DNA of 64,000 nucleotides from Yuukianura sp. NJ FZ-2021 (lineage: Eukaryota), in the NCBI GenBank assembly GCA_046563655.1, contig CM102285.1:1984001-2048000 (forward strand). Direction: 5' to 3'. The notes under the pieces were generated by a model. That model made no database searches. It was not told where the DNA came from and was given only the letters and a program-made list of their open reading frames with translations. This document shows, piece by piece, positions 6,439 to 37,596 of the stretch (positions within the stretch are counted from its first letter, which is position 1; the number at the start of each line of letters is the position of its first letter). The position numbers were made by a program, and so were the translations under genes.

Positions 6439-6925
6439 TGTGGGTATTGATAGTGCTGATTCCGAGTAATGTTAACAGGATTTTGTTCAAATGTCTCAGC
6501 TTTTTAGAAATAAGACTCGAAAATACCCCTACCCCTAACTCAGGGTTATTTTTATGCTTTTGAAAGTAGTTAGTAAAGACATGCAATATTACGTGTTCAA
6601 ACGTAGCAAGAATGTTAACAAAACCCATTATGAAACAAAATAGTGTTGAAGTTGAACGTAATTATAGCAAGGTTATGTTACAATTTTTACGAAAAGCGCT
6701 TAGAAATATCTGTGCATGTCTAGTTTTTATACTTTTGTTATGGAGGTATAAGAGACATGCAACATTCTATGCAAACTAGCCAGGACATTCCCTTTTTCTA
6801 TAAATACTGGATAGCTAACCTAACCTAATTATTAAACAAAAATTACATGATACTAAGGTATGTGCAAAAAAAAAATTTTTTAAACTTGTCTCAGAGCTAC
6901 TTGTTCTACATACCCATTGAAGGGA

Positions 6926-12033: not shown

Positions 12034-12985
12034 GGCTTGATCTTTTATAAGCCCAAAAAACGTAATGATTTATTTTGAAATGACAAACATTGAACTTTGC
12101 ATGCTACCAACATTACTTTAAACCTTGAATCCTGTTTGGCAAAATTAGTAACACTAATTTAAAAGTAACTGTTTATAAATTTTCTTCTCACAATTCCAGT
12201 ATTAGGCTGAACAAGTAAATACAAAAGCAAACATCTATATGGTATATCCTTATATTAAACTTGCAGTGCATCGAAGTGCTAAAAACATCTGGGAGTTTGT
12301 CTTTTCATAAAAAAAAAATTAACACTTTGGAAACCACATTTATTTTTAGGCTTTTCGGAGTCACACCATTTCGTTTGTGCATCGTATAGCAGCTATACTA
12401 CGCTTTTAGAAGCATTCGCGCAATTCCCCAAAAAATTACATGCTCACCTTGAACCTTGAACATCCATTGGATACTAAACAATGTTTTTCTATATTTAGAA
12501 TTTTAAACTACACAGACATGTATAGTAGTTCTCTTAACTTTTTGTTTATCAGTGTTGAAAGCACTGCAATTTGCCTTATCTTCTACTAGAAAGATAAATA
12601 CTGGCCAGTGACGCCGTCATCAACCCATTTGATACTAGCCATTTTGTTGGCCACGAATGCTTTAGGGTAGGATTTATTCGAAAATGAAATATTTGTAATG
12701 GAAAGGTTTCAATAAAAATGTTGGAATATTATTTTACTATTTATGAGGAGAATGAAAAGCTTATTATTTGCATTTCCAAGTCCGCTTGAAGTGTTCGTGC
12801 ACCCTATTTTAAAAAAAAAATTAGTCGGAGCTGCCAAATGAATGTGCAAGTCACGTAAACCTTCTGACCATCATGCAAGAATTTGATCTCTTAAATATTC
12901 CAAAAATGTAGAACTCACGCTATGACCAGTCTTTGTCAAGTCTGCATTGCTTTTGGCTATCTAAATCTTTGAAATCTGCTTCGCG

Positions 12986-15256
12986 ATGGGTTTGTGCGCT
13001 GTGGTTGCCATATTTAAATTTTGTTACAACTTATTAGTATTTTACCCTAAAACTACAGTTCCAGATACACATTTCGACTCTCCAGTGGCAACTGCACAAG
13101 GAGTAAAAGACATTGTTATTGACAGAACGCAGTACGTTACCACTAAATTTGCAGAACATGAACCTTGTTTTGCAGCAATTTTTGTTTTAGCAAGGGAAGA
13201 AACATTTGAACCACGATCGGATGCAACGTCAGCAATGTCGTATTTTGAGGGTTATAATGTGCGTTATGGCGAAAACATACGAAATAGGAGGCCAAGAGTT
13301 CTGCCAGACGCTCAGTTGCAATCACCGTTGAAGTACTTGAATCACCCGATTGGATATATTTACTTGGTTTTTGTGTATCCTCAAGGGGCTCGCCCAACGG
13401 CAACGAATCAACCTGATATGACCCGGTTCATAAATACAAGAGCAGTGGCCATCACATACTTTGTGGGTTCGAATCCTGCCGACCTTAAAATTTGTCTTCA
13501 AGTTGCTTACTTGGACTCGGTTCCATTTTGGAGAAAAGTTTGGCCTTCATGTACAAAAGAGGATCCAGTTGGAGAGGTTTCTGCACCATACTTACCAGTC
13601 AGCATTTCTTTGCCAACTGACGGTAATGTTATTACAGAACACACACTGAGAAGCCAAACTATGAAACTACTGATTGCATATTGGAAAAATTCAACTTACA
13701 AATTCTTGTCGGATCATACATGCGAAGGTCTCACAAAGTTCGCACAAGATTTAGAAAAGGAAAACAATGCTAACAAATTCGACTGGTACAAGCGCATGCG
13801 TGTCGTCATTTTGAAAAAATATTTGGGTTCGTTTGTAACAGCCGAAAAATACAAGAATTGGTCGTTCTGTCCTATAGAAATCTTACCAAAACACTCCCTT
13901 GTTATGTTTGGAGCAAGTTTGGCCATATCCGACTACAGAATGTTCTATGAACGCAGGCCAACTCTGCGAGGAGGCTGTATGTGGCAATTAGTGGTTTTGC
14001 AGGGGTCGACGGGTAATGCCTTTGGGTTTTTAGGTTGTGTGAATTTGAAAGACGGAACAAATTTTTCCGCGTACGTGAAGCCATTTGACTCCACTTTGTG
14101 GATTGGACTAGGCACGTTTGTTTTTCTTTGCATTTTGTTGGGTAAAATTGGTTTGAAACTATTTGAGCTCAAGGATTCATTGTTCATGATTTTTGTTACG
14201 TTGGCTTTGGAACAGGGAACACCAATTTCAGAAAAGTTGAGAAAGGCACTTGCTTTTACTTTTTTGTTCATGACGACTCAGTACATTTTCATAATTTTTA
14301 CCAACGGTTACAAAAGTTTTGTGATTACGAACATGTTGGCACCAATCCCGCCTCCAGAAATGAAAACTTTTGAGGAAGGCGTGGCTGCAAACTTGTCGCT
14401 GATTCCATCCGAGTTTTATATTAGCAAAAATCATGAAGATAGATTCACGAAACCAGTGAAAAACAAGTCAATGGTAACGTGGCTATTTTTGTCGAATTTC
14501 CTTCAGGAGACGGAATTGTGCAACTTTCTTTCAGAAAATGTTATCAGGCCTGAGAATTTAAAAGGCTTTAATAGTTTTGAGTTTGACGACAAAATTCGAT
14601 CACAGAAATTTACACTAAAAGAAATGTGTATTGATCATAACAAGCTGGTTGGTTGGAAGGCTCAAGTTGTCAATAGCGTTACATTACCACCGGGATTTCC
14701 CAATGCGACTGCAGAGGAGCAATTTCTGAAGTGTCAAGGTCAGTTGTTGGTTGTTAAAGAAGCAAGTATGGCTGAAAAAAGAGTGCAGTTATATAATTAT
14801 AACGGAACCACTGGGTTGCACATTTATCAAAGCAACAACAAAGATGATGAAGGTGTTTTACGAGGTGAAAATAACGATTACTTGTTTACATTTAACGACA
14901 TCTATGTTTTGGACTACTTAAAACTTAGGGTAACAGCACTGGCAAGCAATGGGTTCCTAAATCACTGGGAAAAGACATTGAATTGGACAAACAACCTCAA
15001 ATTTATAAAACAGGAACAACAATTTTTGTCTAGCGAAAAAAATATTTTAAAGGAAAGTGAATTTTTGATCCTGGCGAAGATGCGATCCATTTTTGCAATT
15101 GGTGCTGCTGGAATTGCAATTTCAATTTTCGTGTTTATGTTCGAGCAATTAAAGACGTTTTTTGTAAAGTACTATCAGCCAATTTATAGAATTTGGTGCC
15201 CTATTAGGACATGTGAAATTGGAAGTTATTTCGAACTGATTATTATTCCTTATTAG
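12986..15256 (+). CDS. Divergent ionotropic receptor-like protein, copy 3 (single-exon, 756 aa)
   Basis: Full-length paralogue of the spliced IR-like genes, with KPFDSTLW, ALEQG, NGYKSFVITNM, SNGFLNHW and LAKMRSIF motifs. Confidence 0.8.
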   Translation: MGLCAVVAIFKFCYNLLVFYPKTTVPDTHFDSPVATAQGVKDIVIDRTQYVTTKFAEHEPCFAAIFVLAREETFEPRSDATSAMSYFEGYNVRYGENIRNRRPRVLPDAQLQSPLKYLNHPIGYIYLVFVYPQGARPTATNQPDMTRFINTRAVAITYFVGSNPADLKICLQVAYLDSVPFWRKVWPSCTKEDPVGEVSAPYLPVSISLPTDGNVITEHTLRSQTMKLLIAYWKNSTYKFLSDHTCEGLTKFAQDLEKENNANKFDWYKRMRVVILKKYLGSFVTAEKYKNWSFCPIEILPKHSLVMFGASLAISDYRMFYERRPTLRGGCMWQLVVLQGSTGNAFGFLGCVNLKDGTNFSAYVKPFDSTLWIGLGTFVFLCILLGKIGLKLFELKDSLFMIFVTLALEQGTPISEKLRKALAFTFLFMTTQYIFIIFTNGYKSFVITNMLAPIPPPEMKTFEEGVAANLSLIPSEFYISKNHEDRFTKPVKNKSMVTWLFLSNFLQETELCNFLSENVIRPENLKGFNSFEFDDKIRSQKFTLKEMCIDHNKLVGWKAQVVNSVTLPPGFPNATAEEQFLKCQGQLLVVKEASMAEKRVQLYNYNGTTGLHIYQSNNKDDEGVLRGENNDYLFTFNDIYVLDYLKLRVTALASNGFLNHWEKTLNWTNNLKFIKQEQQFLSSEKNILKESEFLILAKMRSIFAIGAAGIAISIFVFMFEQLKTFFVKYYQPIYRIWCPIRTCEIGSYFELIIIPY

Positions 15257-16528: not shown

Positions 16529-19500
16529 CTAATATTCCTTTTTTATATTTAGAGTCTGTACATTTAACTTTTGCAAATGAAAGTCTTTTGGAAGACTAGC
16601 AAAAAGTTTATACAATTTAGGATTAAATTTGCTGTACAGGTTAAGGACTCTAAGTTTCTTTCTGCACCAGCTATTACAATTGCGAAACAATAAACTGTAT
16701 TTCCACTGTGGATTATACGTATCCACCCAAATATTTTTCAATAACTTCATCCCCTTATGAGGATGTACTTCAAATTGCTTCCCAAAAAATTTTTTAATTA
16801 TGGCTTCATAGTTTACCTTACCTCTATAAGGTTCACATCTGATATATATGTTATTTTCTCTATCTCGTGTTAATTCTGCTCTAATAACAAAGTGACCTCC
16901 GTGTAAAATTCCTTCAATAATTAACGCTGAATGTTGTCCCATTGAAGTACATACTGTTCTACTCATCAGTTTAAATTTATTCTTTTTAGCAATAACTGTC
17001 ACAATCCACTTTTTAGTCAAATCGACTTGTTGTTCATTTTCGGAAGTTACCAAGATGGAATGTTGGTATTCTGTTACCGGCAGAAACAAATTACAAAATG
17101 GGCGATACGCTCTGCCCACCGAAGGAGAACCAAGTGAACCATGAAATTTTAGGAGTGACAAGTTTGAACTGTTTATAAATCGTGAATATGATATGTCAAC
17201 TCCTTTCAATGAGAGTGTTGAACTCGAATTTTGACCATTATCAACCTTCCAATCTTTGAATTTACTAAATTTCCCTGTTTCGAAACATTTCCTCAGAGAT
17301 TCTGAGTTCACAGTAAGACGACTTAAATTTGCAGTTTCAGAGCTCACTACAATATGCATTTGTTTAGGAATAGTTTCAACAATTTGAAGTTTAGACACAG
17401 ATTGGAATCCTTGAAACACAAACACAGTTTTTAGTTGGATCGAATCTAAAATGTGTATGTCTCCATTAGGAAACTGAGCTACAATCCAACCTAGTTTTGT
17501 ACACGACGTCATTTGGGCTGGGATTCCAGTCTCTGACTTTTCGCTATATTCTACAACATGTGTGCAATAGAAGAACTCGGAATCGCAGTAACCTTGGAGA
17601 ATTTGGTAACTTTGGGGAACAGTATGCAAGTTCGACTTTTGCGGAAATGTTTTGGAATATTTGATCGTGAGTGTAGTGTAAGTTTTTTCATTAAGATTCC
17701 AAACCCCAATTTCATTCCTAAAATCGGGATTATAAACGTATGAAATATTTTCAATATTCGGGTCGAAAGAAAAAAATGGCAATATAAACTTTGCCTCAAA
17801 AGATAGGTCGAAAGTGAGTTCTAAGAAACTTTCTTCACCAGAACAACTTTCCGTTACACTGTAGCAAGTAAGTTGTTGTTTATTTTGAAAAACAATTTTT
17901 TGGTAATGCTGAAACATGTAGAAACTGCATGATAAGCCTGTAGTATATTCGGTTAAATTCTGATTTTTAATTGGAACAAATTTTTTTGTTTTAGCATTAT
18001 ATCCTATTAGTCTATGTTCTTCTGGAGCAGGTCTATTTGAAATTGAAATATAAAGGATCAGAATATTATTTGGAGTTATTAGAACTGAATCACAAGCAGT
18101 TCGACCCAATGCACCAACTTTATCCCGAAGGTGAAAAGAACTCGAACATTTTTTTCTTAATGTACCATTATGCGAATAATAAAAATTTAAAAAATACGCT
18201 CGACTCGTATCAAACTCATCAGTATTGAGACGAACACTTAAAAGACCATTTTCTGAAATGAAGGTTCTAGTTGGACTTGTTTGAACCGTCATTTCCTTCG
18301 TATGGGTTTTAAATGGGTTTAAACGTTCAAAACGCAATGAATTTTTGAGAACATACATCAAGTACGTTATGCAGGCACTCTTGTTATGTTCTGTATTGCC
18401 TTTTAATGAGATGAGCGTAGCTGGTGCGCCATAATTTATGAGTGCCGTTTGTACCAACTGTTCAGTATTTACGTTGTACACTTCGACGGACGTTTTTAAA
18501 TTTCTGCCAATGAAATTAAAGTCTTCAGAAATAAAACATTGATGATTTATTCCTTCGAAGATGTTGTGAGAAGATTCCCATTTCAGTTTATACTCTTGCA
18601 AAAGTGGAATTATTTGGGCAAAAAACAAAATTTGCTTAGAAGGAGATTGTTCTAAAAATTGAAGCTGCCAGTGCGAACCATTCGGGTTTCTCAATACACA
18701 GATAAATTTATTGTTTTTTAAATCGAACAAGTAAATCGCGCTTTTATCTAAGAAAGACAAATGTGACTTTCCATTGTAAAATATTCCAGAAAAGGACATA
18801 GTGTCATCGAATGTATTTTCCAGTTCTATTTCCATGTTACTAGAAACAAATTGCCAAAACAATTCGAAACAAAAACATTCTTCGTTCCACAAAATCGGTT
18901 TGTCATTATGTAACATTGAAATACGTAAAACTTTTTTCGACCCAACATCACCTCCAAAGTCATTGTAGTGAAAACGGATAGAAACGAGAATTTTAAATCG
19001 TCCAAACGCAAACCAAAAATATTTTTTGGAACACATATCTGAAGCTCCTCTATAAACTCTGAATGTTTTTTCCTCAACAAAAAACGCGTTAGTTTCATTT
19101 GGGAAAAACAGAATATATTTTTGTGCATAACCAAATTGGCTAGAATAATTCAATAGAAAATCTAAACACAAAGTACTCGGATCTAGCGCACCACAACCTA
19201 CAAGTGAGTCTCCCTTGAATACGTACCAAGAATGAAGAACAAGATCAGGAAACAACCTTCCTTCTGAAGCAAACGTCAAACTGTATACAAAATTTAGCAG
19301 CAGTATACTACCTGTGTTTTCAGTAAAGAAAAAAGAATGATCGTCATCTTCCATTAATTTTTCCAAAAAAGTTGATTTAGATTCTATTAATTCAAAATTC
19401 CCTTGAAACTTGTACCTTTTTACGTACAGATCAGTTACATCCGAATCGTCACTTCGTTCTTCATAGCATACGATAACGTGACAAAAAGTATCAACCGAGT

Positions 19501-21600
19501 AAGCCAACATAGCATACACAAAATATTGATTGGAAGATCCAAGACTTTGTGGAGGAATTTCTCCAAACGAACAATTTGAAAAATTTACACCTTGAAATTT
19601 ACACCCTTGGAACCATCCCTGACTCAAAGTCGCATTTTCAAAATTTGCGCCACTGAAATCACTGTTTCCGCAAATTGGATTTGTGAAGTGTGCTCCAGGG
19701 ACTTGAATATTTTGAAAATTATCATCCTCGTTGTTTTTTCCAGAAAAAGTGTAACCGCTTAAATTTAGAATTGTCAAAGCATTTGAAGCCATTTGCTCAA
19801 TTCCAGGAAGAGTAGCTGACTTTTTAATAGTTTTTAACAAAATATCTTGAAATTTTTCGTCTGTTTTGGCTCTGCCAACAAGCATAGACAAAACACCAAC
19901 GAAATCAGGATCGTTTATATCTTTTTGATTAATTGGAAAGTAAACCGCATCTCTTCTTCTATTCCAATTGGAATAATAATTTAGTACACCTCGAAGGCTT
20001 ACAAAAACTTCTCTGCTCAAAAAATATTCAAACAGAGACAAATGAAAAAATTCAAATGCGTAACAACCTGAATTGTAACGAAGCAGACAAGAATCCCGTA
20101 AAAATTTCAAATTTTTCTTTCTTTCCTCGTCCTCATCGTTTTCATTTTGCGGAAAAAGTATTCTTTCTAGTTTTATATTTTCCTCTCTTTTAAACTTTTT
20201 TGAGTAAGGACTCCACGGAGTCCAAAGATTCCAAAACAAAGTTTCCCCCTGTAAGATCTCACCGTTTGTCACATTTCCCTTGTTGAGCCAAGCACAACGC
20301 ATGGCCAAATTCTGTGCATAACCAACCATATAATGACGCAGAACATGTCGACTATCATAAAGAGCATGACTATGTCCAGTTGGTTCCATTCGTTCAATTT
20401 GGTATTTGAACCAAGCTCGAGTAAATTTGTCATACAAAAGAACCTCCGTTCGACAAATTTCTTCTAGTTTTTGCACAAAGTCGTCATCTACATCTCTTTC
20501 CTCAGTAGCTTTCCTCTCGGATTCTACTAGTTTTGGCAACAGTTGACAAATTGTTGTCAAAATGAAAACATTTTGTGCCAATCCTTGCAATTCTGGAAGT
20601 CTGTCTAAAAACCAATACTTGTATTCTGAATCCTCCTTTGCAGATTCCCATTTGGGATGATCCTTTGTAGTAGACTTGGTCATCATCCAGCCGTCATTGA
20701 CCTTCGAATCATACTTAATTGAGTGTAGAAATAGTGGTACTTGGCTAATATACTTCTCTACAATACTTCCCATTATTGGGGATATAAAATAAATAGATTC
20801 CTGTTTCTTTGAAAATCCAAATATTTTTGAAATGTCAACATCAACAAATGCATTCGGTCGACAAAAGACGATTGTCCGGACATGCGTAAATTCTTTAGTC
20901 TTCCACTTGTTTTCTTCCCACAAATTTGACTTGACTTTAAGTTCATCGTATCCATCCAAAATTAATATGAGTTCGCATTTGCATAAATCGAAATACAAGT
21001 TCTGCAATTCCCCGTCTTGAATTTTTGTTGGAAAGTGATTTCTATGGTTCATTATATAACTAAACAAAATGTCCGACCTGAAACTACTGAACGCTTGAAC
21101 TCTCTGCTGACTGATCATACTTTCAATTCGCCCCAGTGGAATGTAAATGGGGATTTTGTTTTGGAATTCTGGTTTTTTAGAGTCGTACAGTTGCTGTGCT
21201 AATTTGAGGGCTAACCAAGATTTCCCAGTTCCAGAATCTCCAAGCACCAGTGTTGACAATGGACCATTTGAATTTGAAATATCTTCCAGAATCGTCTCTT
21301 CCAAGTCGGTAGCCGTGGAAACGCATCCCGGTTTCGCCAGCTCCGTCTGCAGTTGAATATGAAGTCCATGACGCTGTTGAAGCTCCAGTCGCTTTGAGTA
21401 GTACTCTGCTTCAAATAAATTTTTAAACATCGCCTTCATATCTTCAAGAGAATCCCTTCCCTGCAAGAATTCAATAAAATCCGATTTCTAACTTCTAACC
21501 TGAGTCAGAAAATTTGTGCCGACCTTTTATAAAATTTTGTACAAACAGATTTTGTGAAAATTCTGTTTTTTACCAAAGAATTTTTGCGTGATGCAGCCAT
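16529..21600 (-). CDS. STAND/NACHT NTPase 1 with pentapeptide repeats, variable beta-rich region and C-terminal peptidase-like domain (exons 21574-21600, 16529-21460; ~1652 aa)
   Basis: Walker A GDSGTGKS, Walker B LILILDGYDE, winged-helix FFHLSLFEYF, pentapeptide SDFSGANFENATLSQGWFQG, C-terminal QHSALII...YSLLFRNCNSWC. The 9-codon first exon ATGGCTGCATCA...TTG|GTAAAA splices in frame. Confidence 0.85.
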
Positions 21601-22205
21601 TTGGTCGCTTGAAAATCCTCCTTATCTTGAAAATCAAAATCAAACTGGATGTTATTCGAGAATTTTAAGAATTAGATTTTGTGAGGCTCGAAAGTTGAAG
21701 GTTGAATGCAGATAAAATTATTTTAAATATATTAAACCTGTTTTTAGTGTATAGTTTTAGTCGACCAACAACGTAAGTTTGAAAATGGGAAGTGAAATGG
21801 CTAATGTGAAAATTCTTGGGCGTGGTGTCGAAAACTGTGAAAGATAAAACTCAAGTGCTTTTAACAGTTCTGCTGTACAAATACAAACAATGCATACACT
21901 AGATAATAGAATAAGTCAGTCTGTACTCTGCCAGAAGAAATTCCAAAATGTATGTAGCAAATTCCCAATTTAGCGAATTTGTGTATCAAATTCATTATAG
22001 ATATCAATTGAGATCAAAATACGGAAATAAATCTTGTATTGTTTCACGTTTTATTTCAAATCTAATTGTTAATATTCCCTATGCTTTGTTGTTCAAATAT
22101 CTACGCTACAATTATTCTACACGGGTATTATATATTAAATAATATAGTACAGGTTATAATTGTTTACTTTATTTTATTAATTATCATATCTTATTTATTT
22201 ATTCT

Positions 22206-25200
22206 TTAACTACTACAATTTCGACTTCTGTTTTTAACTCTATACTTTCGCAACTCAAAGTCAGCAGGAAGGCTAGCGAAAAGTCTATACAATTTAGTAT
22301 TAAATTTGGTTTCAAGGTTCAGGATTTTGAGTTTCTTTTTACACCAACTATTACAATTATGAAACAGTAAATTGTATTTCCACTGTGGGTTATACGTATC
22401 TACCCAAATGTTTTTCAATAATTTCATTCCCCTGTGAGGATGTACTTCAAATTGCTTTCCAAAATAATTTTTAATAATTTCTTCATACTTTAATTTTCCA
22501 CTACATCGTACACAGTCGATATATACGTTATTTTCACTGTTTTGTTTTAAGTCTGCCCTAATAACAAAGTGACCTCCGTGTAAAATTCCTTCAATAATCA
22601 ATGTTGAATGTCGTGCCATTGAAGTATACACTGTTTTACTCATCAACTTGAACTTATTCTTTTTAGCAATAACTGTTACTGTCCACTTTTTAGTCAAGTC
22701 AATTGGTTGTTCATTGTCAGAACTTACTAAGATGGAGTGTTGGTAGTCTGTTACCGGTAGAAACAAATTGCAAAACTTGCGATATGCTCTGCCCACTGAC
22801 GGAGAGCCAAGTGAACCATGAAATTTCAATAGTGACAGATTTTTTTTGTCCATTAATCGTGAATATGATATGTCAACTCCTTTCAACGAGAGTGTTGAAC
22901 TTGAACTTTGACCATTATCTACTTTCCAGTCCTTGAATTTACCTAGTTTCCCTTTCTTGAAACATTTTCTTAGAGATTCTGAGTTTACAGTAAGACAACT
23001 CGAATTTGCAGTTGTGTCAGAGCATACTACAATATGGACGTGTTCAGGAACAGTTTCAACAAGTTTAAGCTCAGACACAATTTGGAATCCACGAAACATT
23101 AACAAACTATCCAATTCGATTGAATCTAAAATATTGATGTCTCCATTAGGAAACTGAACTACAATCCACCCTAGTCTTGTAGATGATACCACTTGGACTG
23201 GGGTGCGAGAGTCACTATATTTCATCGCATGTACGCAATAAAAAAAATCGTAATCGCAGTAACCTTGCAGAATATAGTCCCATCCGGGAACAGTGAGGAG
23301 GCAATACTTATGTTGCGGAAATTTCTTGCCGTACATGATCGTAAGTGGGGTGTAGGTTTTCTCATCAAGATCCCAAACTCCAATTTCATCTAAAATTTTA
23401 AAATCACTACGAAAATCGGGATCATAAACGTATGAAATATTTTCAATGTTTGGGTCAAAGCCAAAAGCTGGTGTAGAAAAACTTAACTCAAATGACTGAT
23501 CACAAGTTAGTTCCAAGCAAATTTCTTCATCAGGACACGTTTCAGCGACACTATAGCAAGTAAGCTGTCGTTTATTTAGAAAAACAAGTTTCTGGTAGCG
23601 TTGAAACTTGGCGATATCGGAATAGTAGTCCTTAGAAACTTCACCGAAAGTCGGAATATTCTTTATTTGAACGAATTTTTTAGTTTTAGTGTTATATCCC
23701 AATATTCTATTCAAAATTGGAAAATAATGGATCAGAATATGATTTGGAGTTATTAGAACTGAATCATAATTAGTTAAACCCAATGCACCGGAAGGTATAA
23801 TTTCATCCGGAAGGTGGAAACAACTCGAAGATGCTTTCCTTAATGTTCCATTATCAGCAGAATAAAAATTTAAAAAATACGCGCGAGTGGTGGAAAAATC
23901 ATCAGTATTGAGATGGACACTCAGAAGACCATCCTCTGAAATGAATTTTCTTATTGGAGTTGTTTGAAGTCTTACTTCTTTTGTATATGCTTTAAATGTG
24001 TGCAAACTTTCAAAATGCAATGACTTTTCATAAACATACAGCAAGTAGGTTTCGCAGCTACTTGTGCCATCTTCTGTGTCGTGTTGTGGACAGAAGAACG
24101 TGGCTGGTGTGCCATAATCTATTAGTGTAGTTTGTAATAACTGTTGGGTGTTAACGATGAACACTTGAACTGACGTCTTTAAAGTCCTACCAATAAAATT
24201 AAAGTTTTCTGAAATAAAACATTTTTTATTTACTCCATCAATGATGTTCTGAGCAGATTGCCATTTGAGCTTGTTCTCTTGCAGAAGGTAAATTATTTGG
24301 GCAAAGAACAAAATTTGCTTAATTGAAGACTTTTCTAAGAATTCAGCTCCCCAGTTCAGACCTTTTGGGTTTTTCAATCCACCAAAGAAAATGTGGTGTT
24401 TTATTTCGAAAAAGTAAATACTTCTTATACTTATGAAGGTTACTCGTGACCTTCCATCGTATAATACTACAGCAAAGCGCAAATCGTCAGGAAGATCATC
24501 CAAGAAACCCATGTCTTTCTTCTCTATTTTTATTACCTCATTTGAAACAATTTGCCAAAACAATTCAAAACAGAAACTTTCCTCATCATTCCATGTAATC
24601 GGTTTCTCGTCATGCAGCATTGAAATGTCTAAAACTTGATTTAAAGCTACTGCGGCTCCAGAACCAGAGTATTCAAAGCGGATGGAAACGAGAAGTTTAA
24701 ACCGCCCAAATCCAAACCCAAAAAATTTTATGCAACACACACAATCTGACGCTGTTCCATACCCTTCGAATGTTTGTTTTTCAACAAAAACTGAATTAAG
24801 TTCGTTTGGAAAAAATACAATATATTTTTGTTCAAAGTCAAACTGGTTACTATAATTCAACAGAAAGTCTAAAGACAAATTACTCGAATCGAATGTACCA
24901 CAATCTACAAGCGAGTCGGCTTTGAATTCGTACCAAGATTGAAGAACACAAGCAGGAAACAATTGTCCGTCTGACACAAGCGTAGAAGTAGATACAAAAT
25001 TGAGTAAAATTGCACTACCTGTGTGTTCGATAAGGAAAAAAGAGTGACCGTCATCTTCATGTAATGTTGTTAAAAATGTTGCTTTGGATTCTATTAATTC
25101 AAAATTCTTTTGAAACTTGTAACTTTTCACGTACAGATTAACTACATCCGAAATTGAAGTCCGTTCTGTGTAGCAAATGACAACTTGACAAAAATTGTCA

Positions 25201-27336
25201 ACGGAGTAGCTTAACATAGCAAGCACTACATGTTGATTGAAGGTTCCTAGATTTATTGGGGGAATTTGTCCAAACGAGCAGTTTAAAAAATTTACGCCTT
25301 GAAACTTACAGCCTTGAAACCACCCCTGACTCAATGTAGCATCCTCAAAATTAGCCCCACTAAAATCACTGTTTCCGCAAACTGAATTTCGTAAACTTGC
25401 TCCAGGGACTTGAATATTTTGAAAATTATCATCCTCGTTGTTTCTTCCAGAAAAATTGTAACCGCTTAAATTTAGAATTGTGAAAGCATTTGAAGCCATT
25501 TGTTCAATTCCAGGAAGAGTAGCAGACCTTTTAATAGTTTCTAACAAAATGCATTGAAATTTTTCGTCTGTTTTAGCTCTGCCAACAAGCATTGACAAAA
25601 CGCCAATAAATTCCGGATCGTTAATATTCTTTTGATTAATTGGAAAGTAAACTCCATCCCTTCTTCTGTTCCAATTCGAATAGTAATTTAGCGCACCTCG
25701 AAGGTTTACGAAAACATCTCTGCTCAAAAAATATTCAAAAAGAGACAGATGCAAAAATTCAAATACGTAACAACATGAATTGTAATGTAGTAGACAAGAA
25801 TCTCTTAAAAATTTCAAATTTTCCATTCGATCCTTATCCTTATCTTTCTCATTTTGTGGGAAAAGTATTTTTTCTAAATTCATGTTTTCCTGTCTCTTAA
25901 ATTTTTTTGAGTGAGGACTCCACGGAATCCAAAGATTCCAAAATAAGGTTTCATTTTCTGAAATTTCTCCGTTCAATACTTTTCCTTCGTTCATAGAAGC
26001 ACAACGCATGGCTAAATTCTGTGCGTAGCCGACCATGTAATGACGCAAAACCTGTCGATTTTCATAAAGAATTTGCGCATGGCCGGTCGGTTCCATCCGT
26101 TCAATTTGGTATTTGAACCAAGCTTGAGTGAATTTGTCATACAGAAGAACCTCCGTTCTACAAATTTCTTCCAGTTTTTGCACAAAGTCATCGCCTGCAT
26201 CTATTTGCTCGGTTGCCTTCCTCTCTGATTCTACTAATTTTGGCAACAGTTGACAAATTATTGTCAAAATGAAAACATTTTGTGCCAATCCTTGCAATTC
26301 TGGAAGTCTATCTAAAAACCAATACTTGTATTCTGAATCTTCCCGTGCAGATTCCCATTTGGGATAATCCTTTGTGGTAGATTTGGTCATCATCCAGGGG
26401 TCGTTTACCTTTGAATCATATTCCATTGCATGCAGAAATTTTGGTACTTGGCTAATATACTTCTCTACAATGCTTTGAATTATTGGCGATATAAAATAAC
26501 TACATCGCTGTTTCTTCAAAAATCCAAATATGTTAGAAACGTCAATATCAACAAATGCATTCGGTCGACAAAATACTACTGTTCGAACACCCTTAAAATC
26601 TTTAGTGTTCCATTTGTTTTCTTCCCACAAATTTGACTTGACTTTAAGTTCATCATATCCATCCAAAATTAAAATCAATTCGCATGTGCATAAATCCAAA
26701 TACAAATTTTGCAGTTCCCCGTCTTGAATTTTTGTTGGAAAGTGATTTCTATGGTTCATTATATAACTAAACAAAATGTCCGACCTGAAACTACGGGAGT
26801 GTTGCTTTGTCTGCTGACTGATCATTTTCTCAACCCGCCCCAGCGGAATGTACACAGGGATTTTGTTTCGAATTTCCGGTTTAACAGAGTCGTAGAGTTC
26901 CTTTGCTAATTTGAGTGCTAACCAAGATTTTCCAGTACCAGAATCTCCAATGACCAGTGTCGACAATGGACCATTTGAATTCGAAATATCTTCCAGAATT
27001 GTCTCTTCCAAGTCGGTGGCCTTGAAAACGCTACCGGGTTTTGCTACAGCAGTCTCCAGTCGAATATGAAGTCCATGGGTTTGTTGAAGTTCTAGTCGCC
27101 TTGAGTAGTACTCAGCTTCGAATAAATTTTTAAACATCGTCTTTATATATGTCGCGGAGTTCCATTCCTGTAATAATTTCGTACAGCACAATTACTAAGT
27201 TATACCACAAGCCATACAATTCCTTTCTAGCTTTCTAGAATTTTGTAGAAGTTCATTTCGTAAAATGAATTTTGTTCGACAAATGAATCCATAGTTTAAT
27301 TTTTTTTACCAATGTTTCTTTGCATGCTGCAGACAT
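22206..27336 (-). CDS. STAND/NACHT NTPase 2, same architecture (exons 27310-27336, 22206-27167; ~1662 aa)
   Basis: Same motifs (GDSGTGKS, LDGYDE, RHSTLII, YNLLFHNCNSWC). 9-codon first exon ATGTCTGCAGCA...TTG|GTAAAA, acceptor TTACAG|GAA. Confidence 0.85.
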
Positions 27337-28722
27337 TTTGTTTTAGAATCCTTCTTGTATTGAAAATTAAAATCAAACCGTTTCTGAAGTTTAACAAATG
27401 AATTTTTCGAGGCTCCAAAACTTGTTGTTGAATTCAAATTAAAAATTAAATTAGATTTTTTGGCGTAAAGTATTACTTCGTGAAAGGAATACTAAAAATG
27501 CAAGTGAAATGGTTAATGTGGAAATTATTGGGTGTGGTGGCAAAAAACTGCGTTTATCTCTTTATTATAACAAGATAAAACTAAACTCTAACCTATCGTC
27601 ATTTTGTATTTTCATCATTTTGTATTTTCATATTTTCATCTACTTGTGTCAATTGGTTAGTCAAAAATTTGAAGTTATAAAGAAATCATTGAGTGATGCA
27701 TGTTCAAATCGAGTAAGTACTTTTTTGTGACAGTTCCATGTGAGTAGTAACATTTGTTGAAAAACGGTACCATTTAATTTAACGTTGCAAACATCAGATG
27801 AACTGTCTGCAAGGGTATCAGTTGCGTAGTTAATCCTTTTTGATTTTCCAAACCACACCAAGCTTTAAGGTGGTTTTGGTTTATATTTCTGATGTATGTG
27901 AATTGCTTAACAGCGGAAGAGATAAGTTGTATATTAATTCAGTAGTACATAGAAATTCCAACATCACTGAATTGGACAATTGTAACCTTAAATTTCTTAA
28001 ACAGGAGTAAGAATCCCTTTGAAAATGAAACAAGTTTGCTAAAACAACGCGAGTCTTTGCGACTCTCAAAGATGACATTTATTTTTTCGGTTAAGACCAC
28101 AGGAATTGCAATGTCACTGTGACCTTATACTTACAACAAATTCAAAAACGTTGGTGAAAATTGGGGTACGAATGCACAACTATTTTCAAAAAATCTTTTC
28201 CACGAGTAATTCCTGAGCGCTAGTTTTCGATTTGTACACAACAGCGAAAAGCGAACTAAAAGTTAGATCATTAAGAGCTTATTCGGTAAATTAGTCTTTT
28301 TCAATCGCCGTCAGAACCAAACGAATTTTGATGCAAGATTAAGTGAATTTGCGAATCAGATTCGCAATAATTATTAATTGAATATAGTAATCAAAAAGAA
28401 AAATACATCTTGTACACAACAAAATTCTCGTATATATTTATTCGAGATTTTATTTCTTATTCAATTCCTGTTTTTATTTTTTATATTCTCTATCTTGTGT
28501 TGTCCAAATATTTAAGTTACAATTATTATACATGGGTATTATAATATCTACGAATATTGTACACATTATGAAAATTGTATGTTTCTATCATATTTAATCA
28601 ATTAACTTAAACTCATTACACTTTCTCATTCCCTTTTTGAACTGTATACTTTTGCAACGGAAAGTCTTGTGGAAGACTAGCGAAAAGTCTATACAATTTA
28701 GGATTGAATTTGGTTTCAAGAT

Positions 28723-31700
28723 CTAGTACTTGAAGTTTCTTTTTGCACCAACTATTACAATTGTGGAACAATAAACTATATTTCCACTGTGGTTAGGTTG
28801 AAGTTTCTTTTTGCACCAACTATTACAATTGTGGAACAATAAACTATATTTCCACTGTGGATTATACGTATCTACCCAAATATTTTTCAATAACTTCATC
28901 CCCTTGTGAGGATGTACTTCAATTTGCTTCCCAAAATAATTTTTAATTATTCCTTCATACTGCAATTTCCCTTTGCATGGTACACATCTGATATTTACGT
29001 TGTGTTCTCTGTCTTGAGTTAATTCCGCTCTAATAACAAAGTGCCCTCCGTGTAAAATTCCTTCAATAATCAACGCTGAATGTTGATCCATTGAAGAATA
29101 CACTGTTTTACCCATCAGTTTAAATTTATTCTTTTTAGCAATAACCGTCACAGTCCACTTTTTAGTCAAGTCAACTTGCTGTTCAGAAGTTACTAGAATG
29201 GAATGTTGGTATTCCGTTACCGGCAGAAATAAATTGCAAAACGGTCGATATGCTCTGCCTACTGATGGAGAACCAAGTGAACCATGAAATTTTAGGAGTG
29301 ACAAATTTGTACTGTTGATAAATCGTGAAAAAGATATGTCAACTCCTCTCAACGAGAGTTTTGAACTTGAACTTTGACCATTATCTACCCTCCAGTCCTT
29401 GAATTTACTTAATTTCCCTGTTTCGAAACATTTCCTTAGAGATTCAGAATTTACAGTAAGACAACTTAAATTTTCAGTGTCACAGCTTACTACAATACGG
29501 GCTTGCTTAGGAACGGTTTCGACAATTTGAAATTTAGACACGGATTGGAACACATGAAATACAAACAACGTCTTCAGCTGGATCGAATCTAAAATATGTA
29601 TGTCTGCATTACGAAACAGAACTAAAATCCATCCTAGTTTAGTAGATGAAACCACTTGGACAGGGGCATCAGTCTCTGATTTACTATATTTTTCAACATG
29701 TGTGCAATAGAAGTACTCGGAATCGTTGAAACCTTGTAGAATATTGTCCCTTTGAGGAACAGTATGTAAGGTCGGCTTAGTACGTCGTGGAAATGTTTCT
29801 CCGTACTTAATTTCAAGTGTCTTGTAACTTTTTTCATTAATATTAAGATTCAAAACTCCAATTTCATTGCTGTCTGGATGGTAAACGTACCAAACACTTT
29901 CAAAGTTTGGATCAAAAGCAAAGCGGGGCGAGGAAAAACTTATCTCAAAAGATAGATGATCAAATGTCAGTTCTAAGCAAATTTCTTCATCAGAACAAGT
30001 TTCAGTGATGCTATAGCAAGTAAGTCGTTCATTATTTTGGTAAATAATTTTTTGGTAATGCTGAAACATGTGGAAATCGATACAAGCGTCCCATACAAAT
30101 TCAGGCAAAGTCGGTTTATTTTTTATTGGAATAATTTTATTTGATTTAGCGTTATATGCTATCAATCTATTTGAAATTAACATGCGATGGATCAGAGTAT
30201 GATTTGGAGTTATTAGAACTGAATCATAGTCACTTCGACCCAATGTACCGTGAGGTAAAATTGTATACGGGATGCGAAAACAACTCGAAGACTTTTTTCT
30301 TAATCCACCATTTTCAGCAGAATAGAAATCCAATACATACTCGCGAGTGGCCGAAAACTCATCAGGACTGAGGTGAACACTTAAGAGACCATCGTCTGAG
30401 ATGAATTCTGCTCTTGAACTTGTTTGACTTCTCAATCCTTTTGTACATGTTGTTAATTCCTGCACAGGTTCAAAATGTAACGTATTTTGAAGAATATACA
30501 TTAAGTATGTTTTACCATACTCTGTGTCATTATTTAAACATATAAACACCGCTGGTGTGTTAAAGTCTATTAGTACAGTTTGTAACAACTGTTCAGTGGT
30601 AACGCTGTACACTTCAACGCATGTTTTTAAATTCCTTGCAATGAAATTATAGTTTTCAGAAACAACACATTGTTGATTTATTTGAACATCAATGATTTTG
30701 TGCGAAGATGGACATTTCAGTTTGTATTCTTGTAAAAGGTCAAGTACTTGAACAAAAAACGATTTTTGTTTAGCTGGATCTTGTTCTACGAATTCACGCC
30801 ACAAGTCCAAACAAACTTTTGGATTTTTCAATACACCAAGATACGTTTCATTTTTTAAATCGAACAAGTAAATATTTGTCATACCTAAGAAAGTTATGTG
30901 TGACCTTCCATCGTAAAATATTCCGGAGAGGAACAAATTGTCATCAAAATTATCTTCCTGTTCTGGCTCTATGCCGTCACTTGAATCGATATGCCAAAAC
31001 AATTCAAAGCAAAAACTTTCTTCGTTCCATAAAATAGGACTGTCCTTATTACGTAGCATTGAAACGTGCACGACATCTGTTGAAACAGTTCCAGAGTCGG
31101 TGTATTCAAATTCAGGACGGATAGAAACAAGAATTTTAAAACGTCCAAACGCAAACCAAAAATATTTTTTATAATACAATTTTGAGGGTGTTTCAAAAAC
31201 CTTGAATTTTTCTTCGTCAACAAAAACTGAATTTAGCTCATTCGGAAAAAATACAATATATTTTTGTACATACTCAAATTGGTTAGAATAATTCAATAGA
31301 GAATCTAAACTCAACGTACTCGAATCAACTGTTCCCCAACTTTTAAGTGAGCCGGCCTTGAATTCGTACCAAAATTGAAGAATCAGAACGGGCTTCCTAT
31401 CTCCGGTTGGAACATGCTTTAAAGTAGGTACAAAACCTAACAAAATTACACTACCTGTATTTTCTACAAAGAAAAACGAATGATCATCATCTTCCCTTAT
31501 TTTTCTCAAAAATGTTGCTTCAGGCATTATAAATCCAAACTTTTCTTGAAAGATGTAACTTTTAAAATATAGATCCGAAAAACTTTCACTTCGTTCCTCG
31601 TAACATGTGACCAGATAACAAAATTTGTCATCAGAGTAAGTAAAAATCGCATGCATAATATTTTCATTGGAACTTCCAACAGTCATTGGAGGAATTTGTC

Positions 31701-33748
31701 CAAATGAACAATTTAAAAAATTTACACCTTGAAATTTACACCCTTGAAACCATCCCTGATTCAATTCTGCATTTTCAAAATTTGCACCACTAAAATCAGT
31801 GTTTCCACAAATAGAACTTTTTAAGCTTGCTCCAGGGACTTGAATATTTTGAAAATTATCATCCTCTTTGTTTCTTCCAGAAAAACTGTAACCGCTTAAA
31901 TTTAGAATTGTGAAAGCATTTGAAGCCATTTGTTCAATTCCAGGAAGAGTAGCTGACTTTTTAATAGTTGTTAGCAAAATATCTTGAAATTTTTCGTCTG
32001 TTTTAGCTCTGCCAACTAGCATAGACAAAACACCTACAAATTCTGGATCGTTGATATTCTTTTGATTAATTGGAAAGTAAACTCCTTCTCTTCTTCTGTT
32101 CCAATTTGAATAATAATTTAGAACACCTCGGAATTTTTCAAAAACTTCACGACTCAGGAAGTATTCAAAAATAGACAAATGCAAAAATTCAAATGCGTAA
32201 GAACATGAATTGTAACGCAACAGACAAGAATCCCTTAAAAATTTCAAATTTTCCATTCGATCCTTGTCTTTATCTTTCTCATTTTGCGGGAAAAGTAATT
32301 TTTCTAAATTCATGTTTTCCCGTCTCTTAAACTTTTTTGAGTGAGGACTCCATGGGGTCCAAAGATTCCAAAACAAAGTTTCACCTTCTGAAATTTCACC
32401 GTTCAATACTTTTCCCTCATTTAGAGAAGCACAACGCATGGCTAAATTCTGTGCATAGCCCACCATATAATGACGAAGCACATGTCTATTTTCGAAAAGA
32501 ACATGCGCATTCCCTGTTGGTTGCATTCGTTCAATTTGGTATTTGAACCAAGCTTGAGTGAATTTGTCATACAGAAGAACCTCCGTTCTACAAATTTCTT
32601 CTAGTTTCTGCACAAAGTCATCACATACATTTTTTTCCTCGGTAGCTTTCCTCTCTGATTCTACTAATTTTGGCAAAAGTTGACAAATTGTGGTCAAAAT
32701 GAAAACATTTTGTGCCAATCCTTGCAATTCTGGAAGTCTCTCTAAAAACCAATACTTGTATTCTGAATCCTCCTGTGCCGACTCCCATTTGGGATGATCC
32801 TTTGTGATAGATTTTGTCATCATCCAGGGATCGTTTACCTTTGCTTCATACTGCATTGAATGCAGAAATTGTGGTACCTTGCTAATATACTTCTCTACAT
32901 TGCTTCCAATTATTGGGGATATGAAATAGCAAGGTTGCTGTTTCTTGGAAAATCCAAATATTTTTGAAATATCAACATCAACAAACGCATTCCGCCGACA
33001 AAAAATGATTGTTCGAACTTCCTTGAAATCCTTCGTGTTCCATTTGTTTTCTTCCCATAGATTAGACTTGACTTTCATTTCATCATATCCATCCAAAATT
33101 AAAATCAATTGACAATCGCATAAATCCAAATACAAATTTTGCAATTTCCAATCTTCAAACGGAAAGTGATTTCTATGGTTCATAATGTAACTAAACAAAA
33201 TGTCCGACCTGAATCTACTGGACTCTTGATTCTTTTGCTGACTGATCATTTTCTCAATTCGCCCCAATGGAATGTACACAGGGACTCTGTTTTGAAACGC
33301 TGGTTGCGATGAGTCGTACAATTTCTTTGCTAATTTGAGTGCTAACCAAGATTTCCCGGTTCCAGAATCTCCAAGGACCAGTGTTGACAAGGGACCATTT
33401 GAGTTTAAAATATCCTCCAGAATCCTATTCTGCAAATCAATATTTTTCAAAGTACCGCCCATCTGCGTCTCCAGTCGAATATGAAGTCCAACGCTTTTTT
33501 GAAGTTCAAGAATGCGTGAGTAGTATTCCGCTTCAAATAAAGTTTTGAACATTGACTTCAGATCCTCCGGAGAATTCCTTCTCTGCAATTTTTTTTTTGA
33601 TAAAGTATAAGTTCGACTGTAACAATGTACCCACAATTTTTGTAAATTTACAGTGTAAAAGAAAACAACATTGTTTTAGAAGTATGAACTATATAGTTAC
33701 ATATATAATTTAAAATTTTACCACTGATTGTTCGCCTACTGCATCCAT
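28723..33748 (-). CDS. STAND/NACHT NTPase 3, same architecture, C-terminal tail frameshifted (exons 33722-33748, 28723-33582; ~1628 aa)
   Basis: Same motifs (QHSALII, YSLLFHNCNSWC). 9-codon first exon ATGGATGCAGTA...GTG|GTAAAA. The tail is altered by the duplication at 28730-28860. Confidence 0.85.
28730..28860. repeat. Exact 63-nt tandem duplication (period 68) in the 3' end of NACHT gene 3
   Basis: 28730-28792 = 28798-28860, separated by TTAGG. Confidence 0.9.
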
Positions 33749-35084: not shown

Positions 35085-36121
35085 TAGCAAAGTGTTAACG
35101 TTTTTTATGAAAAGACAAACTCCAGATGCTTTTAGCACTTCGATGCACTGCAAGTTCAATATAAGTATATACCATATAGATGTTTGCTTCTATTTGTTCA
35201 CTTGTTTAGCCAAACACTAGAACTGTGAGAAGAAAATTTATAAACAGTTACTTTTAGATTAATGTTACTAATTTAGCCAAACAGTATTCAAGGTTTAAAG
35301 TAATGTTGGTAGCGTGCAAAGTTCATTATTTGTCATTTCAAAATAAATTATTACGTTTTTTTTTTTTATAAAAGATCAAGCCATGAGAGACGTCGAAAAA
35401 GTACAAATGACGACATGGATTAGTAATGCTCCTCAGTTCCTCAGTGAATCATCCGAAATTTCCAGAATCATGTTTCAACAAGTTCCACAGTTTTGGTTAT
35501 GGTTGATCAAACGAAGTAGTGAACAGTGGAGTTTTTATTGTGGAGTTGAAAAGTGTTCAAAGAGGCAACTACTAATCGAAAAGTGAATTTGAAGAAAGTT
35601 TTGAAGGAACACAGATGTGGAAGTGGTTTCGAAAAATGTTTTCAAGATTCCGAAAACCAAGAAACGAACCAGTACAGGATTCGGTAATTTTGAAATAATC
35701 AAAAATTCTGGTTTCTTAAAACGTGATTAGAAAAAAACAATCTACACGATTTTTTTCACATTTTTATTCAAAAGTTATATTTTCTTTGTAACTTTTAGAA
35801 CAAAAATGAGTTCGATGAAGACTCTGCTGACTCAATTTTACTCAAGAAGCATGTCAAGTCAATTTCAAGCACCCAAGGCGTTCTGATGATGTGTACTGGA
35901 GGAATACATGCCTTCCTTATGATGGAGTACTTGGAATGGAACGAAGATGCAAAGAAATTTGTTCGATCATTCCAACGTCTTGACTTTGGTCCAAAGTCCA
36001 AAGCCCATATTCTTTTAGGCAAAGGGAGGCTTCGTGTCACTACTGTTAAGAAAGACACTGAGGAAGGAACAGAAAAGTTGGAACAGTGGGAAAAAAGTGT
36101 CAAAGTTGGACCACATTGGAA

Positions 36122-37596
36122 CATAGCTCGGCACTTCTCCGATCCCCGCTCTCCGCTCCTGCATTCCCCGCTCTCCGATCGCGATCGGAGAGCGGAGCCA
36201 GCCAGAGCGGAAGGTAGGGCCAGAGATCGGGGAGCGGAGAAAGTCAGAGCGGAGAAGAAGCCCAAAGAGCGGGGAGCGGAAAAAGTCAGAGCGGAAGGGA
36301 AGCCCAAAGAGCGGGGAGCGGAGAAAGTCAGAGCGGGGGCTTAGGGCAAAAGATCGGGGAGCGGGTGCTTGGGAGCGGAGGAAAAGCGCCGAGGTGAGGT
36401 TTTTCGGAATGGCAAAATCCAGGGAAAATTTAAAGCCGCAAGTTCTAAAGCAGAGTTACTATTACTTACTTTTTGTTTTTAAGTTGTTTCTGTGGCATAC
36501 AACATAATGAATTGACCGTTACACGCCTATCAGTGTTGTATATAGTATTTAAGGGTCGGGTAGTTTTTTACGTTTCAGTGAAAGATACTGAAATAAATGA
36601 AAGAAACTGAAAAATTGAAAGAAACTGAAAAAAAGTGAAATTAACTGAAAATTTCACCGATGTTTTTTTTTCATTTCACTGAAAGAAATTGAAAGAAAGT
36701 GAAAGAAATTGAAATATTGCATTCAAATATTTCAGCTTATCAGTGAAATAAATTAAAGAAGCTGAAAAGGTTTATTTCGTTTCATGTATTTTTCAGTTTT
36801 TTAATTTTTCACTGAAAAGTGAAATATTGCAGTTCTAACACTGCCGCCTATCACCGGAGTAAATGCTGTAGAGGGATATGTCGCACAAGTCAAATGTCAA
36901 CTCAAAATATGTCATATTGTCACATCAAGGCAACGTCGCCACAATATGTTGTCAAGATGAGTGTCTCCAAGCCATGTCACCTCTCACATGCGACCTGAAT
37001 GAATCCGCGTTGTCGTCCCCTGAAACCTCTGCGTCAATGTCGCCGAGGTAAATGTCGCTGTGGTAAATGTCGCTACGACTACGTGTCGCCGTGCTGTCCC
37101 AAATAAATGTCGCTGAATGAAATAGCGTCTATTCAAATGTCGCCGAGATTCCGCATCTTCCAAACTAAAATATTGCCGAAGTGAGCATTTATACAATCTA
37201 TTACGAAGTACTGTTAGGAGAAATGTCGAGGTCAAAATTTCTTGAAGAAAGAAATGCTAGTGGTGGTGTCGCCTAATCAAATTTCACTCAATGTCGCCAA
37301 ATGTTTTTGATTGGTTACGATTTAATTTAGTATAGCTTTAACAGTGCAGCATATAGATGTAATTATGGGGTTGGGATCGGAGAGCGGAAAAAGATCGCTT
37401 GGGAGCGGAGAATGTACTCGCAGAGCGGGGAGCGGAGCCAGACAGAGCGGGAGGAAAGGCCAAAGAGCGGGGAGCGGAAAAAGACAGAGCGGGGGGAAAG
37501 GCCAAAGAGCGGGGAGCGGAGCCAGCCAGAGCGGGGGGTAAGGATGAAAGATCGGGGAGCGGGTGCATGGGAGCGGAGCAAAAGTGCCGAACTCTG
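36122..37596. mobile_element. Non-autonomous hAT-type element with GAGCGGGGAGCGGA subterminal repeats
   Basis: TIR CA(T/G)AG(C/T)TCGGCACTT. Perfect 8-bp TSD CATTGGAA at 36114-36121 and 37597-37604. Absent from the left copy (HWNVDVEK is continuous there). Confidence 0.9.
36531..36843. mobile_element. Nested hAT-like MITE
   Basis: CAGTGTT...AACACTG termini, near-perfect TSD ACGCCTAT/CCGCCTAT and internal GAAAGAAACTGAAA repeats. Confidence 0.7.

Follow-up and report, generated by a model that had tools for sequence, protein, structure and literature searches.

In animal receptors of the NLRP1/CARD8 type, a C-terminal CARD adaptor is released by FIIND autoproteolysis. C-terminal effectors have also been described for bacterial NACHT (bNACHT) proteins in a preprint (10.1101/2022.07.19.500537), and, these being already in print, the NACHT clade was known to include output domains placed at the C-terminus. 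NACHT-PPR-WD40 receptors are common to Mortierellomycota and Mycoavidus endosymbionts, from which the fungi acquired them, with a parallel case in Gigasporaceae, according to another study (PMC11291939). Here we analyze a stretch of 64,000 nucleotides (the window; positions below count from its first letter) from the eukaryote Yuukianura sp. NJ FZ-2021 (assembly GCA_046563655.1, contig CM102285.1, positions 1,984,001 to 2,048,000), which contains three tandem genes for NACHT proteins that end in a conserved Cys/His module. The explanation that we prefer, holding and doubting it in about equal measure on the strength of the sequences, is that these paralogous genes encode eukaryotic NTPases of the STAND/NACHT type, from a family that also occurs in a narrow set of bacteria, and that their C-terminal module is a Cys-His thiol enzyme, most likely a divergent, helix-permuted papain-like one. 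The order of parts in each protein is a short N-terminal helix, the NACHT domain, pentapeptide repeats, a fast-evolving stretch of about 745 aa, a short pentapeptide-like linker and the module of about 200 aa.

Gene models and domain order

Three long open reading frames (ORFs), read from the minus strand of the window, lie in tandem at 16529-21466, 22206-27191 and 28723-33636 and comprise 1,645, 1,661 and 1,637 codons, respectively. The product of gene 1 (P0001) is 72% and 71% identical to those of its two paralogues, and the spacers between the three ORFs hold no other frame of at least 120 aa, the size considered in that search. A three-way alignment of the upstream regions, in which about 64% of the columns are identical on average, revealed an additional short exon: in all three copies, an ATG opens a stretch of nine codons that runs up to a GTAAAA donor, and a T[TA][GA]CAG acceptor connects it to the long exon exactly in frame. 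Based on the ORFs and this alignment, gene 1 is predicted to occupy 16529..21600 on the minus strand, with exon 1 at 21574-21600 (MAASRKNSL), an intron of 113 nt at 21461-21573 (GTAAAA...TTGCAG) and exon 2, including the stop codon, at 16529-21460. On the same basis, gene 2 is predicted at 22206..27336 (minus strand; exon 1 at 27310-27336, MSAACKETL; intron of 142 nt at 27168-27309; exon 2 at 22206-27167), and gene 3 at 28723..33748 (minus strand; exon 1 at 33722-33748, MDAVGEQSV; intron of 139 nt at 33583-33721; exon 2 at 28723-33582). The 9-codon exon and the intron of 113-142 nt suggest that these genes, with bacteria as their closest identified kin, have a spliceosomal intron.

The tail of gene 3 is frameshifted by a 68-bp tandem duplication (28730..28860, minus strand; 1.9 copies, 100% matches). 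The frame shifts right after NCNSWCKKKLQ, altering the last ~40 residues of the module, and the normal tail is found in another frame at 28619-28792 (P0033). The duplication could be a true truncating allele or an assembly slip.

We also observed, some 190 nt ahead of exon 1, a non-coding block that is conserved between copies (about 21760-21850 and 27480-27560). Neither of its strands contains a conserved reading frame, and a plus-strand gene at this place, initially a candidate, was dropped for that reason. The block may represent a promoter or a 5' leader.

Near the start of each protein lies an NTPase core of the NACHT type. The Walker A consensus GxxGxGK[ST] is present in all three as GDSGTGKS, and at Walker B all three read DGYDE, in agreement with D[GAS]hDE, which the bNACHT preprint defines as the NACHT signature. 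In gene 1 the core spans residues 73-186 of P0001 (20909..21250, minus strand; PF05729, E 3.9e-6), with Walker A at 21218-21241 and DGYDE at 20942-20956. The segment from Walker A to DGYDE is found on the same strand at 26649..26948 in gene 2 (Walker A 26925-26948, DGYDE 26649-26663) and at 33079..33372 in gene 3 (Walker A 33349-33372, DGYDE 33079-33093). The Pfam NACHT model, PF05729, has a cut-off of 26.7 bits, which gene 1 exceeds with 27.2 bits, while genes 2 and 3 remain below it with 23.2 and 25.7 bits. Further along the protein comes a pentapeptide-repeat segment (gene 1, 19550..19720, about residues 583-639; gene 2, 25257-25427; gene 3, 31687-31857; all minus strand), which scores 28.3, 26.2 and 24.3 bits in genes 1-3 against the PF00805 cut-off of 20.2 bits.

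Walker A begins at residue 83, 83 and 80 in genes 1, 2 and 3 when the first exon is included, as calculated from the exon model and the motif coordinates. It lies at residue 62-102 in all 13 motif-matching full-length representatives among the relatives described below, and, counted within the stop-to-stop frame, at position 78-124 in all 10 complete bacterial ORFs that were fetched. Because of the conserved 9-codon exon, the short spacers and this early Walker A in relatives, an N-terminal effector domain in the three paralogues appears very unlikely.

The module at the other end of the protein comprises residues 1440-1645 in gene 1 (16532..17149, minus strand), where the conserved His is H1512 (16931-16933) and the conserved Cys is C1597 (16676-16678). 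The two are 85 residues apart, and the Cys forms an Asn-Cys motif with N1596, so that His precedes Cys and Cys sits within Asn-Cys, as in PPPDE-type enzymes. The corresponding modules on the minus strand are at 22209..22826 in gene 2 (His 22608-22610, Cys 22353-22355) and at 28726..29292 in gene 3 (His 29080-29082, Cys 28825-28827), the latter truncated after the Cys helix. Over 54 non-redundant module rows, the His is conserved in 48/51, a Glu six residues after it in 50/51, an Asp in 42/50, a Tyr in 49/52, the Asn in 44/51, the Cys in 50/51 and a Trp in 49/51. His and Cys occur together in 46 of 48 rows, the exceptions being P0004, with Gln in place of His, and P0025, with Arg and Ser.

A second His is found 13 residues after the conserved one (residue 1525 of P0001, 16892-16894). 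It is embedded in RHF or GHF in the clade of the window proteins (P0004, P0005, P0008, P0011, P0012, P0014 and P0017), and the rest of the module family has Arg at this position (RRF).

Much of what had been proposed for this locus in an original prediction, made before our analysis, survives these examinations. The three paralogues with NACHT and pentapeptide parts are borne out by the motifs, present in 3/3 genes, and by Pentapeptide scores above cut-off in 3/3. The position given as the end of the array, 33748, is the ATG of gene 3 exon 1, and the His and Cys codons, as well as the motifs QHSALII/RHSTLII and Y(S/N)LLFxNCNSWC, were exactly placed. Space for an N-terminal effector is indeed lacking: the first exon has nine codons, only 605 bp separate the ATG of gene 1 from the stop of gene 2, and 23/23 full-length relatives begin alike. 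The extra coding exon that the alignment revealed upstream is the 9-codon one, which leaves no room for an N-terminal effector of the kind that the prediction had named as evidence against itself. The C-terminal module, described as conserved and of ~150 aa, proved to be conserved but larger, at ~200 aa (204 profile positions).

The variable middle region, of ~745 aa, is located at 17312..19546 in gene 1 (residues 641-1385), 22992-25253 in gene 2 and 29467-31683 in gene 3, all on the minus strand, and takes the position held by WD40 propellers in relatives. We calculated the ratio of nonsynonymous to synonymous substitution rates (dN/dS) per region among the three paralogues by the Nei-Gojobori method. 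It was 0.21-0.26 in the NACHT core, 0.15-0.17 in the conserved helical part (residues ~240-570), 0.38-0.48 in the middle and 0.13-0.17 in the C-terminal module, with dS among paralogues mostly ~0.4-0.65. Three-way identity followed the same pattern, at 66-86% over residues 51-650, 30-58% over residues 651-1400 and 60-84% over residues 1401-1600. Judging by dS, dN/dS and identity, the copies are old and constrained, and diversify chiefly in the middle, as a sensor would. A fast-evolving region (0.38-0.48) hence lies beside a conserved switch (0.13-0.26), the arrangement characteristic of NOD-like receptors (NLRs).

The middle region, originally proposed to be beta-rich, gave zero Pfam matches, even at E ≤10, and no similarity was found between it and the middles of relatives. 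Three of these relatives (P0006, P0010 and P0013) carry WD40 repeats at the corresponding position, and a 40-position model built from 74 repeats of relatives scored no better on the window's middle than on shuffles. We therefore dropped a WD40 propeller as an assignment for this region, there being no signal from Pfam propellers, the repeat model or similarity to relatives. By analogy with the relatives, it would still be a reasonable guess that the middle is a diverged propeller.

Distribution and relatives of the family

A full HMMER scan of 1.84 billion representative proteins, with the last 207 residues as query, retrieved 28 representatives at E ≤1e-3. The 16 of these that have at least 1,000 aa also match P0001 on the N-terminal side of its middle, through the NACHT domain, the pentapeptide repeats or both, and do not match the middle itself. 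A domain-profile search of word-indexed proteins returned 3 longer proteins and 8 of similar length, and a full-protein query in the word-indexed search returned no match. The domain order predicted for the window genes recurs in other taxa: NACHT-pentapeptide-WD40 proteins, including some of Gammaproteobacteria, end in the module. In the ESM Atlas, the clusters nearest to P0032 are of the NACHT/pentapeptide/WD40 type, and Mucoromycota is the label of a cluster having this set of Pfam domains.

Stand-alone proteins consisting of the module also exist. These are 223-405 aa long (223-247 aa in seven of the eight) and have no precomputed Pfam domain, and the two that are named are called "hypothetical protein". 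No model in Pfam, NCBIfam or PADLOC passes for the module family, and PADLOC likewise holds no model matching the window proteins. Since stand-alone proteins exist and NCBIfam and PADLOC lack a model, the module looks like a self-contained, unannotated enzyme family. The catalytic-looking residues are kept in fused and stand-alone copies alike. In one metagenomic protein (P0024, 540 aa) we observed two tandem module copies and no NACHT part.

One of the relatives, P0007, is encoded on a 2.9-Mb contig of a metagenome-assembled genome (MAG) of Gammaproteobacteria. The module was found in 11/63 genomes of the order to which this MAG belongs, in 10/400 genomes sampled from the class and in 1/201 from the phylum, the last being the query genome only. 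The order consists of small-genome Gammaproteobacteria, and most of its matches are ORFs of ~200-230 aa. In one bacterial genome four full paralogues lie within 17 kb. In four bacterial loci (L002, L003, L006 and L010) the NACHT gene is directly followed by an ORF of 233-263 aa with the module. In a fifth (L001), from the bacterial MAG, the gene right after the NACHT-propeller gene encodes a stand-alone module paralogue of 226 aa, counted from its ATG (11626-12306). The latter locus also contains a gene for a patatin-like phospholipase (6024-7148), two genes upstream of the NACHT homologue.

Trees were calculated for the NACHT part (27 rows) and for the module (47 rows); both are unrooted, and most rows are of unknown origin. 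In both, the window copies group with P0008, P0011 and P0014, with support of 100/99 for the NACHT part and 90/88 for the module. This shared grouping indicates that the two ends of the protein have been inherited together. In the module tree, a branch with support of 90/88 separates the five stand-alone bacterial copies from the fused ones. The unrooted trees do not show the direction of transfer between bacteria and the eukaryote.

The nature of the C-terminal module

Among the enzyme families that bear on the module, C97, C92 and LRAT are circularly permuted papain-like enzymes, and DUF2459 and DUF4105 are newly recognized as papain-like, in a published classification (PMC10318531). When 37 members of the module family were scanned against Pfam at E ≤1, the only families recurring in at least three members were Peptidase_C97/PPPDE (five members, best E 0.0037), Lnb_N (three) and DUF2459 (three), with LRAT and Transglut_core2 matching one member each. 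The gene 1 match to C97 spans both the His and the Cys, aligning module residues 69-170 with profile positions 24-121 of 151. As the commonest weak match, C97 raises an alternative in which the module is a PPPDE/DeSI-type cysteine isopeptidase (a deubiquitinase or deSUMOylase) switched on by NACHT oligomerization; moreover, the motif Y-x-L-L-x-x-N-C-N presumably resembles the one of PPPDE. We consider this alternative improbable. The C97 score is 14.3 bits in gene 1 and 13.6 bits in gene 2, about half of the gathering score of 29.2 bits for PF05903, and gene 3 has no match. None of the bacterial relatives is recognized by the model, and the 400 + 63 bacterial genomes of the class and the order yielded no PPPDE member that passes the cut-off. 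The best profile-profile match (below) is Lnb_N and not a peptidase family. Membership of the module in PPPDE/DeSI, as had been originally proposed, is thus not supported, given the 14.3 versus 29.2 bits and the failure of PF05903 on the bacterial relatives, and we regard it as unlikely that the module is a PPPDE.

Profile-profile comparisons by hhalign were made between a 58-row alignment of the module and alignments of Peptidase_C92, DUF2459, Lnb_N and LRAT built from bacterial loci. The local P values were 0.0011 for Lnb_N (63 columns), 0.0065 for DUF2459, 0.015 for LRAT (15 columns) and 0.046 for C92, with hhalign probabilities of up to 20%. In the Lnb_N, DUF2459 and LRAT alignments the conserved Cys of the family falls on the Asn-Cys of the module, after an aligned Tyr. 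The local alignment with C92 stops before the Cys, and a non-significant global alignment with this family sets His on His and Cys on Cys. Reversed controls gave P values of at least 0.3 in 8/8 cases, and the true scores were above those of column shuffles in 35/35 comparisons for Lnb_N, DUF2459 and C92 and in 34/35 for LRAT.

With Lnb_N, which we take to be the former DUF4105, as the best match, and with an Asn-Cys dipeptide common to the module and LRAT, the module might instead be an LRAT/PLAAT/Lnb-like acyl-transferase or phospholipase that attacks or remodels membrane lipids or lipoproteins. The second His of the window clade (RHF) fits such an enzyme and recalls, we presume, the His-His-Cys triad of PLAAT enzymes, and the patatin phospholipase gene near the bacterial homologue in L001 points in the same direction. 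The LRAT match, on the other hand, covers 15 columns, its score was reached by one of the 35 shuffles, and in most of the family the second His is an Arg. We find this alternative, too, improbable. The known helix-permuted papain-like enzymes comprise isopeptidases (PPPDE/DeSI) on the one hand and acyl-transferases and phospholipases (LRAT/PLAAT, Lnb) on the other, and our data on the module do not distinguish peptidase chemistry from that of an acyl-transferase or lipase.

Taken one level higher, the module is somewhat more likely than not to be of the helix-permuted papain-like kind, judging by the profile alignments, and it is quite probably a Cys-His thiol enzyme, as the conservation of these residues suggests. 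The permuted papain-like fold of the original prediction is thus weakly supported: the hhalign P values of 0.0011-0.046 argue for it, and the lack of any match above a Pfam cut-off argues against it.

Several observations weigh against the preferred explanation. No Pfam match of the module reaches its cut-off, the best E for C97 being 0.0037, and PF05903 misses 10/10 of the domain-bearing genomes (with 13 weak matches among the 400 class genomes) and matches 0/63 genomes of the order. The hhalign probability is 20% at best and 1-6% for the other families, compared with 94% for a true pair, C92-LRAT, in the same set-up. Significant similarity is limited to the half of the module with helix, Tyr, Asn-Cys and helix, the His half being aligned only in the non-significant global alignment. 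Sequence searches of the PDB, with one sequence and two profiles, yielded only chance-level matches (ENTH, a polyphenol oxidase and a serine hydrolase). To these are added the frameshifted tail of gene 3, and the stand-alone paralogue, of an old separate lineage, that often follows the fused gene in bacteria, as one might equally expect of a pairing partner or an adaptor. Finally, nothing in the 64-kb window points to an immune role.

Under the preferred explanation of a thiol enzyme governed by a NACHT switch, the variable middle would bind a ligand, and the NACHT part would exchange its nucleotide and oligomerize. The C-terminal enzyme modules might thereby be unmasked or brought together, and the output of the switch would be their action on a target, either protein or lipid. 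While the genes, their domain order, the missing N-terminal effector, the selection pattern, the conserved residues and the distribution of the family are shown by the sequences, this activation mechanism and any immune role are inferred, as are the fold and the chemistry of the module.

The stand-alone copies raise a further alternative, namely that the module is a homotypic pairing, regulatory or bait domain, with the true output acting in trans, for example through the stand-alone paralogues. A module ORF directly follows the NACHT gene in several bacterial loci, the five stand-alone copies lie apart from the fused ones in the module tree, and P0024 has tandem copies. Against it, the catalytic-looking residues are maintained in both kinds of protein, and the window contains no stand-alone module copy; we hold this alternative to be decidedly improbable. 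The weakest alternative supposes that NACHT-pentapeptide-propeller genes of a bacterial type have passed between bacteria and a eukaryotic host, where they would serve host-symbiont dealings or housekeeping and not pathogen sensing. It draws on the concentration of the family in one small-genome order of Gammaproteobacteria, on the passage of NACHT-PPR-WD40 receptors from Mycoavidus to Mortierellomycota and the parallel case in Gigasporaceae (PMC11291939) together with the Atlas cluster labelled Mucoromycota, and on the composition of each gene as a single long exon plus a 9-codon exon, but seems highly improbable, as the unrooted NACHT tree, with 13 rows of unknown origin, shows no direction, and receptors in conflict are usually recognized by just such a combination of tandem expansion and a fast-evolving middle. 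This alternative concerns the role of the genes and not their anatomy, and can be compatible with the preferred explanation of three NACHT paralogues with a C-terminal thiol enzyme.

A further-reaching proposal, which we put forward only tentatively and consider doubtful, is that the eukaryotic NLR-like sensors of this tandem array carry at their C-terminus, and not at the N-terminus, effectors of a new permuted papain-like family, and that the sensor-enzyme pair is shared and was probably exchanged with small-genome, perhaps intracellular, bacteria. If true, eukaryotic NLR-like immunity would gain an effector class as well as an effector position that are both new to it. If the module is an active thiol enzyme under a NACHT switch, the proteins would offer a simple single-chain model of a sensor with its output behind the sensor repeats, and a conserved enzyme family absent from present domain libraries would receive a name. 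With members in a eukaryote and in one small-genome bacterial order, the family makes a concrete case for studying how hosts and their bacteria exchange receptors of the immune type.

Surroundings of the genes and comparison with known systems

The window as a whole has a G+C content of ~35%, and Rfam and tRNA scans of its 64 kb were empty. Two paralogous single-exon frames, of 763 and 553 aa, are located at 12965-15256 (plus strand) and 3802-5463 (minus strand); they contain hydrophobic stretches and match no Pfam family. The idea that the neighboring membrane proteins are ionotropic-receptor-like was dropped for lack of Pfam support. On the minus strand, the frame at 6926-7411 encodes a beta/gamma-crystallin domain (E 5e-7), and two tandem, apparently intron-less genes of the glutamine-synthetase type are located at 50616-51914 and 52979-54292 (Gln-synt_C, E 3e-69 and 6e-66). 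A frame with a RabGAP-TBC domain covers only the second half of the Pfam model, which implies an upstream exon. This frame and the intron conserved in the three NACHT genes mark the DNA as eukaryotic. The segment at 35795-38000 is unlike the rest of the window, with G+C of up to 0.43, strong GC and AT skew, and overlapping frames on both strands (35795-36507 and 37338-37806).

At the level of the module, the likeness to PPPDE/DeSI (PF05903) lies in the order of His before Cys, the Asn-Cys following a conserved Tyr, the similar size and the most frequent weak Pfam match; the difference lies in a score under the cut-off and in a model that misses the relatives. Lnb_N (PF13387), DUF2459 (PF09601) and LRAT (PF04970) have the succession helix-Tyr-x-x-Asn/Thr-Cys-helix in register with the module, and C92 (PF05708) comes into register in the global alignment only. 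The module differs from these four in that the hhalign probabilities do not exceed 20%, the His halves are not significantly alike, and the Glu six residues after the His and the Trp three residues after the Cys are particular to the module family. Among the papers listed by a literature search, none links NACHT with PPPDE, LRAT or NlpC.

Compared at the level of the whole protein, receptors of the NLRP1/CARD8 type resemble the window proteins in having their output C-terminal to the sensor repeats, and differ in that the window module is an apparent enzyme; no homology between the two is detectable. The bNACHT proteins, as presented in the preprint (10.1101/2022.07.19.500537), are closer: their NACHT domain bears D[GAS]hDE, and the presumed sensor consists of a beta-propeller or of pentapeptide repeats. 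Those bNACHT proteins that were tested protect bacteria against phages, whereas the genes in the window are eukaryotic and contain an intron. A domain that the preprint names "NCC-H" may or may not correspond to the module. The NOD-like receptors of Mucoromycota, acquired from endosymbiotic bacteria, differ from the window proteins in that the accessible part of PMC11291939 mentions no C-terminal Cys/His module and that the window's middle gives no WD40 signal. They have in common with them the NACHT-pentapeptide-propeller backbone, and the sharing between eukaryotes and bacteria, which are intracellular in the fungal case and may be so in that of the window.

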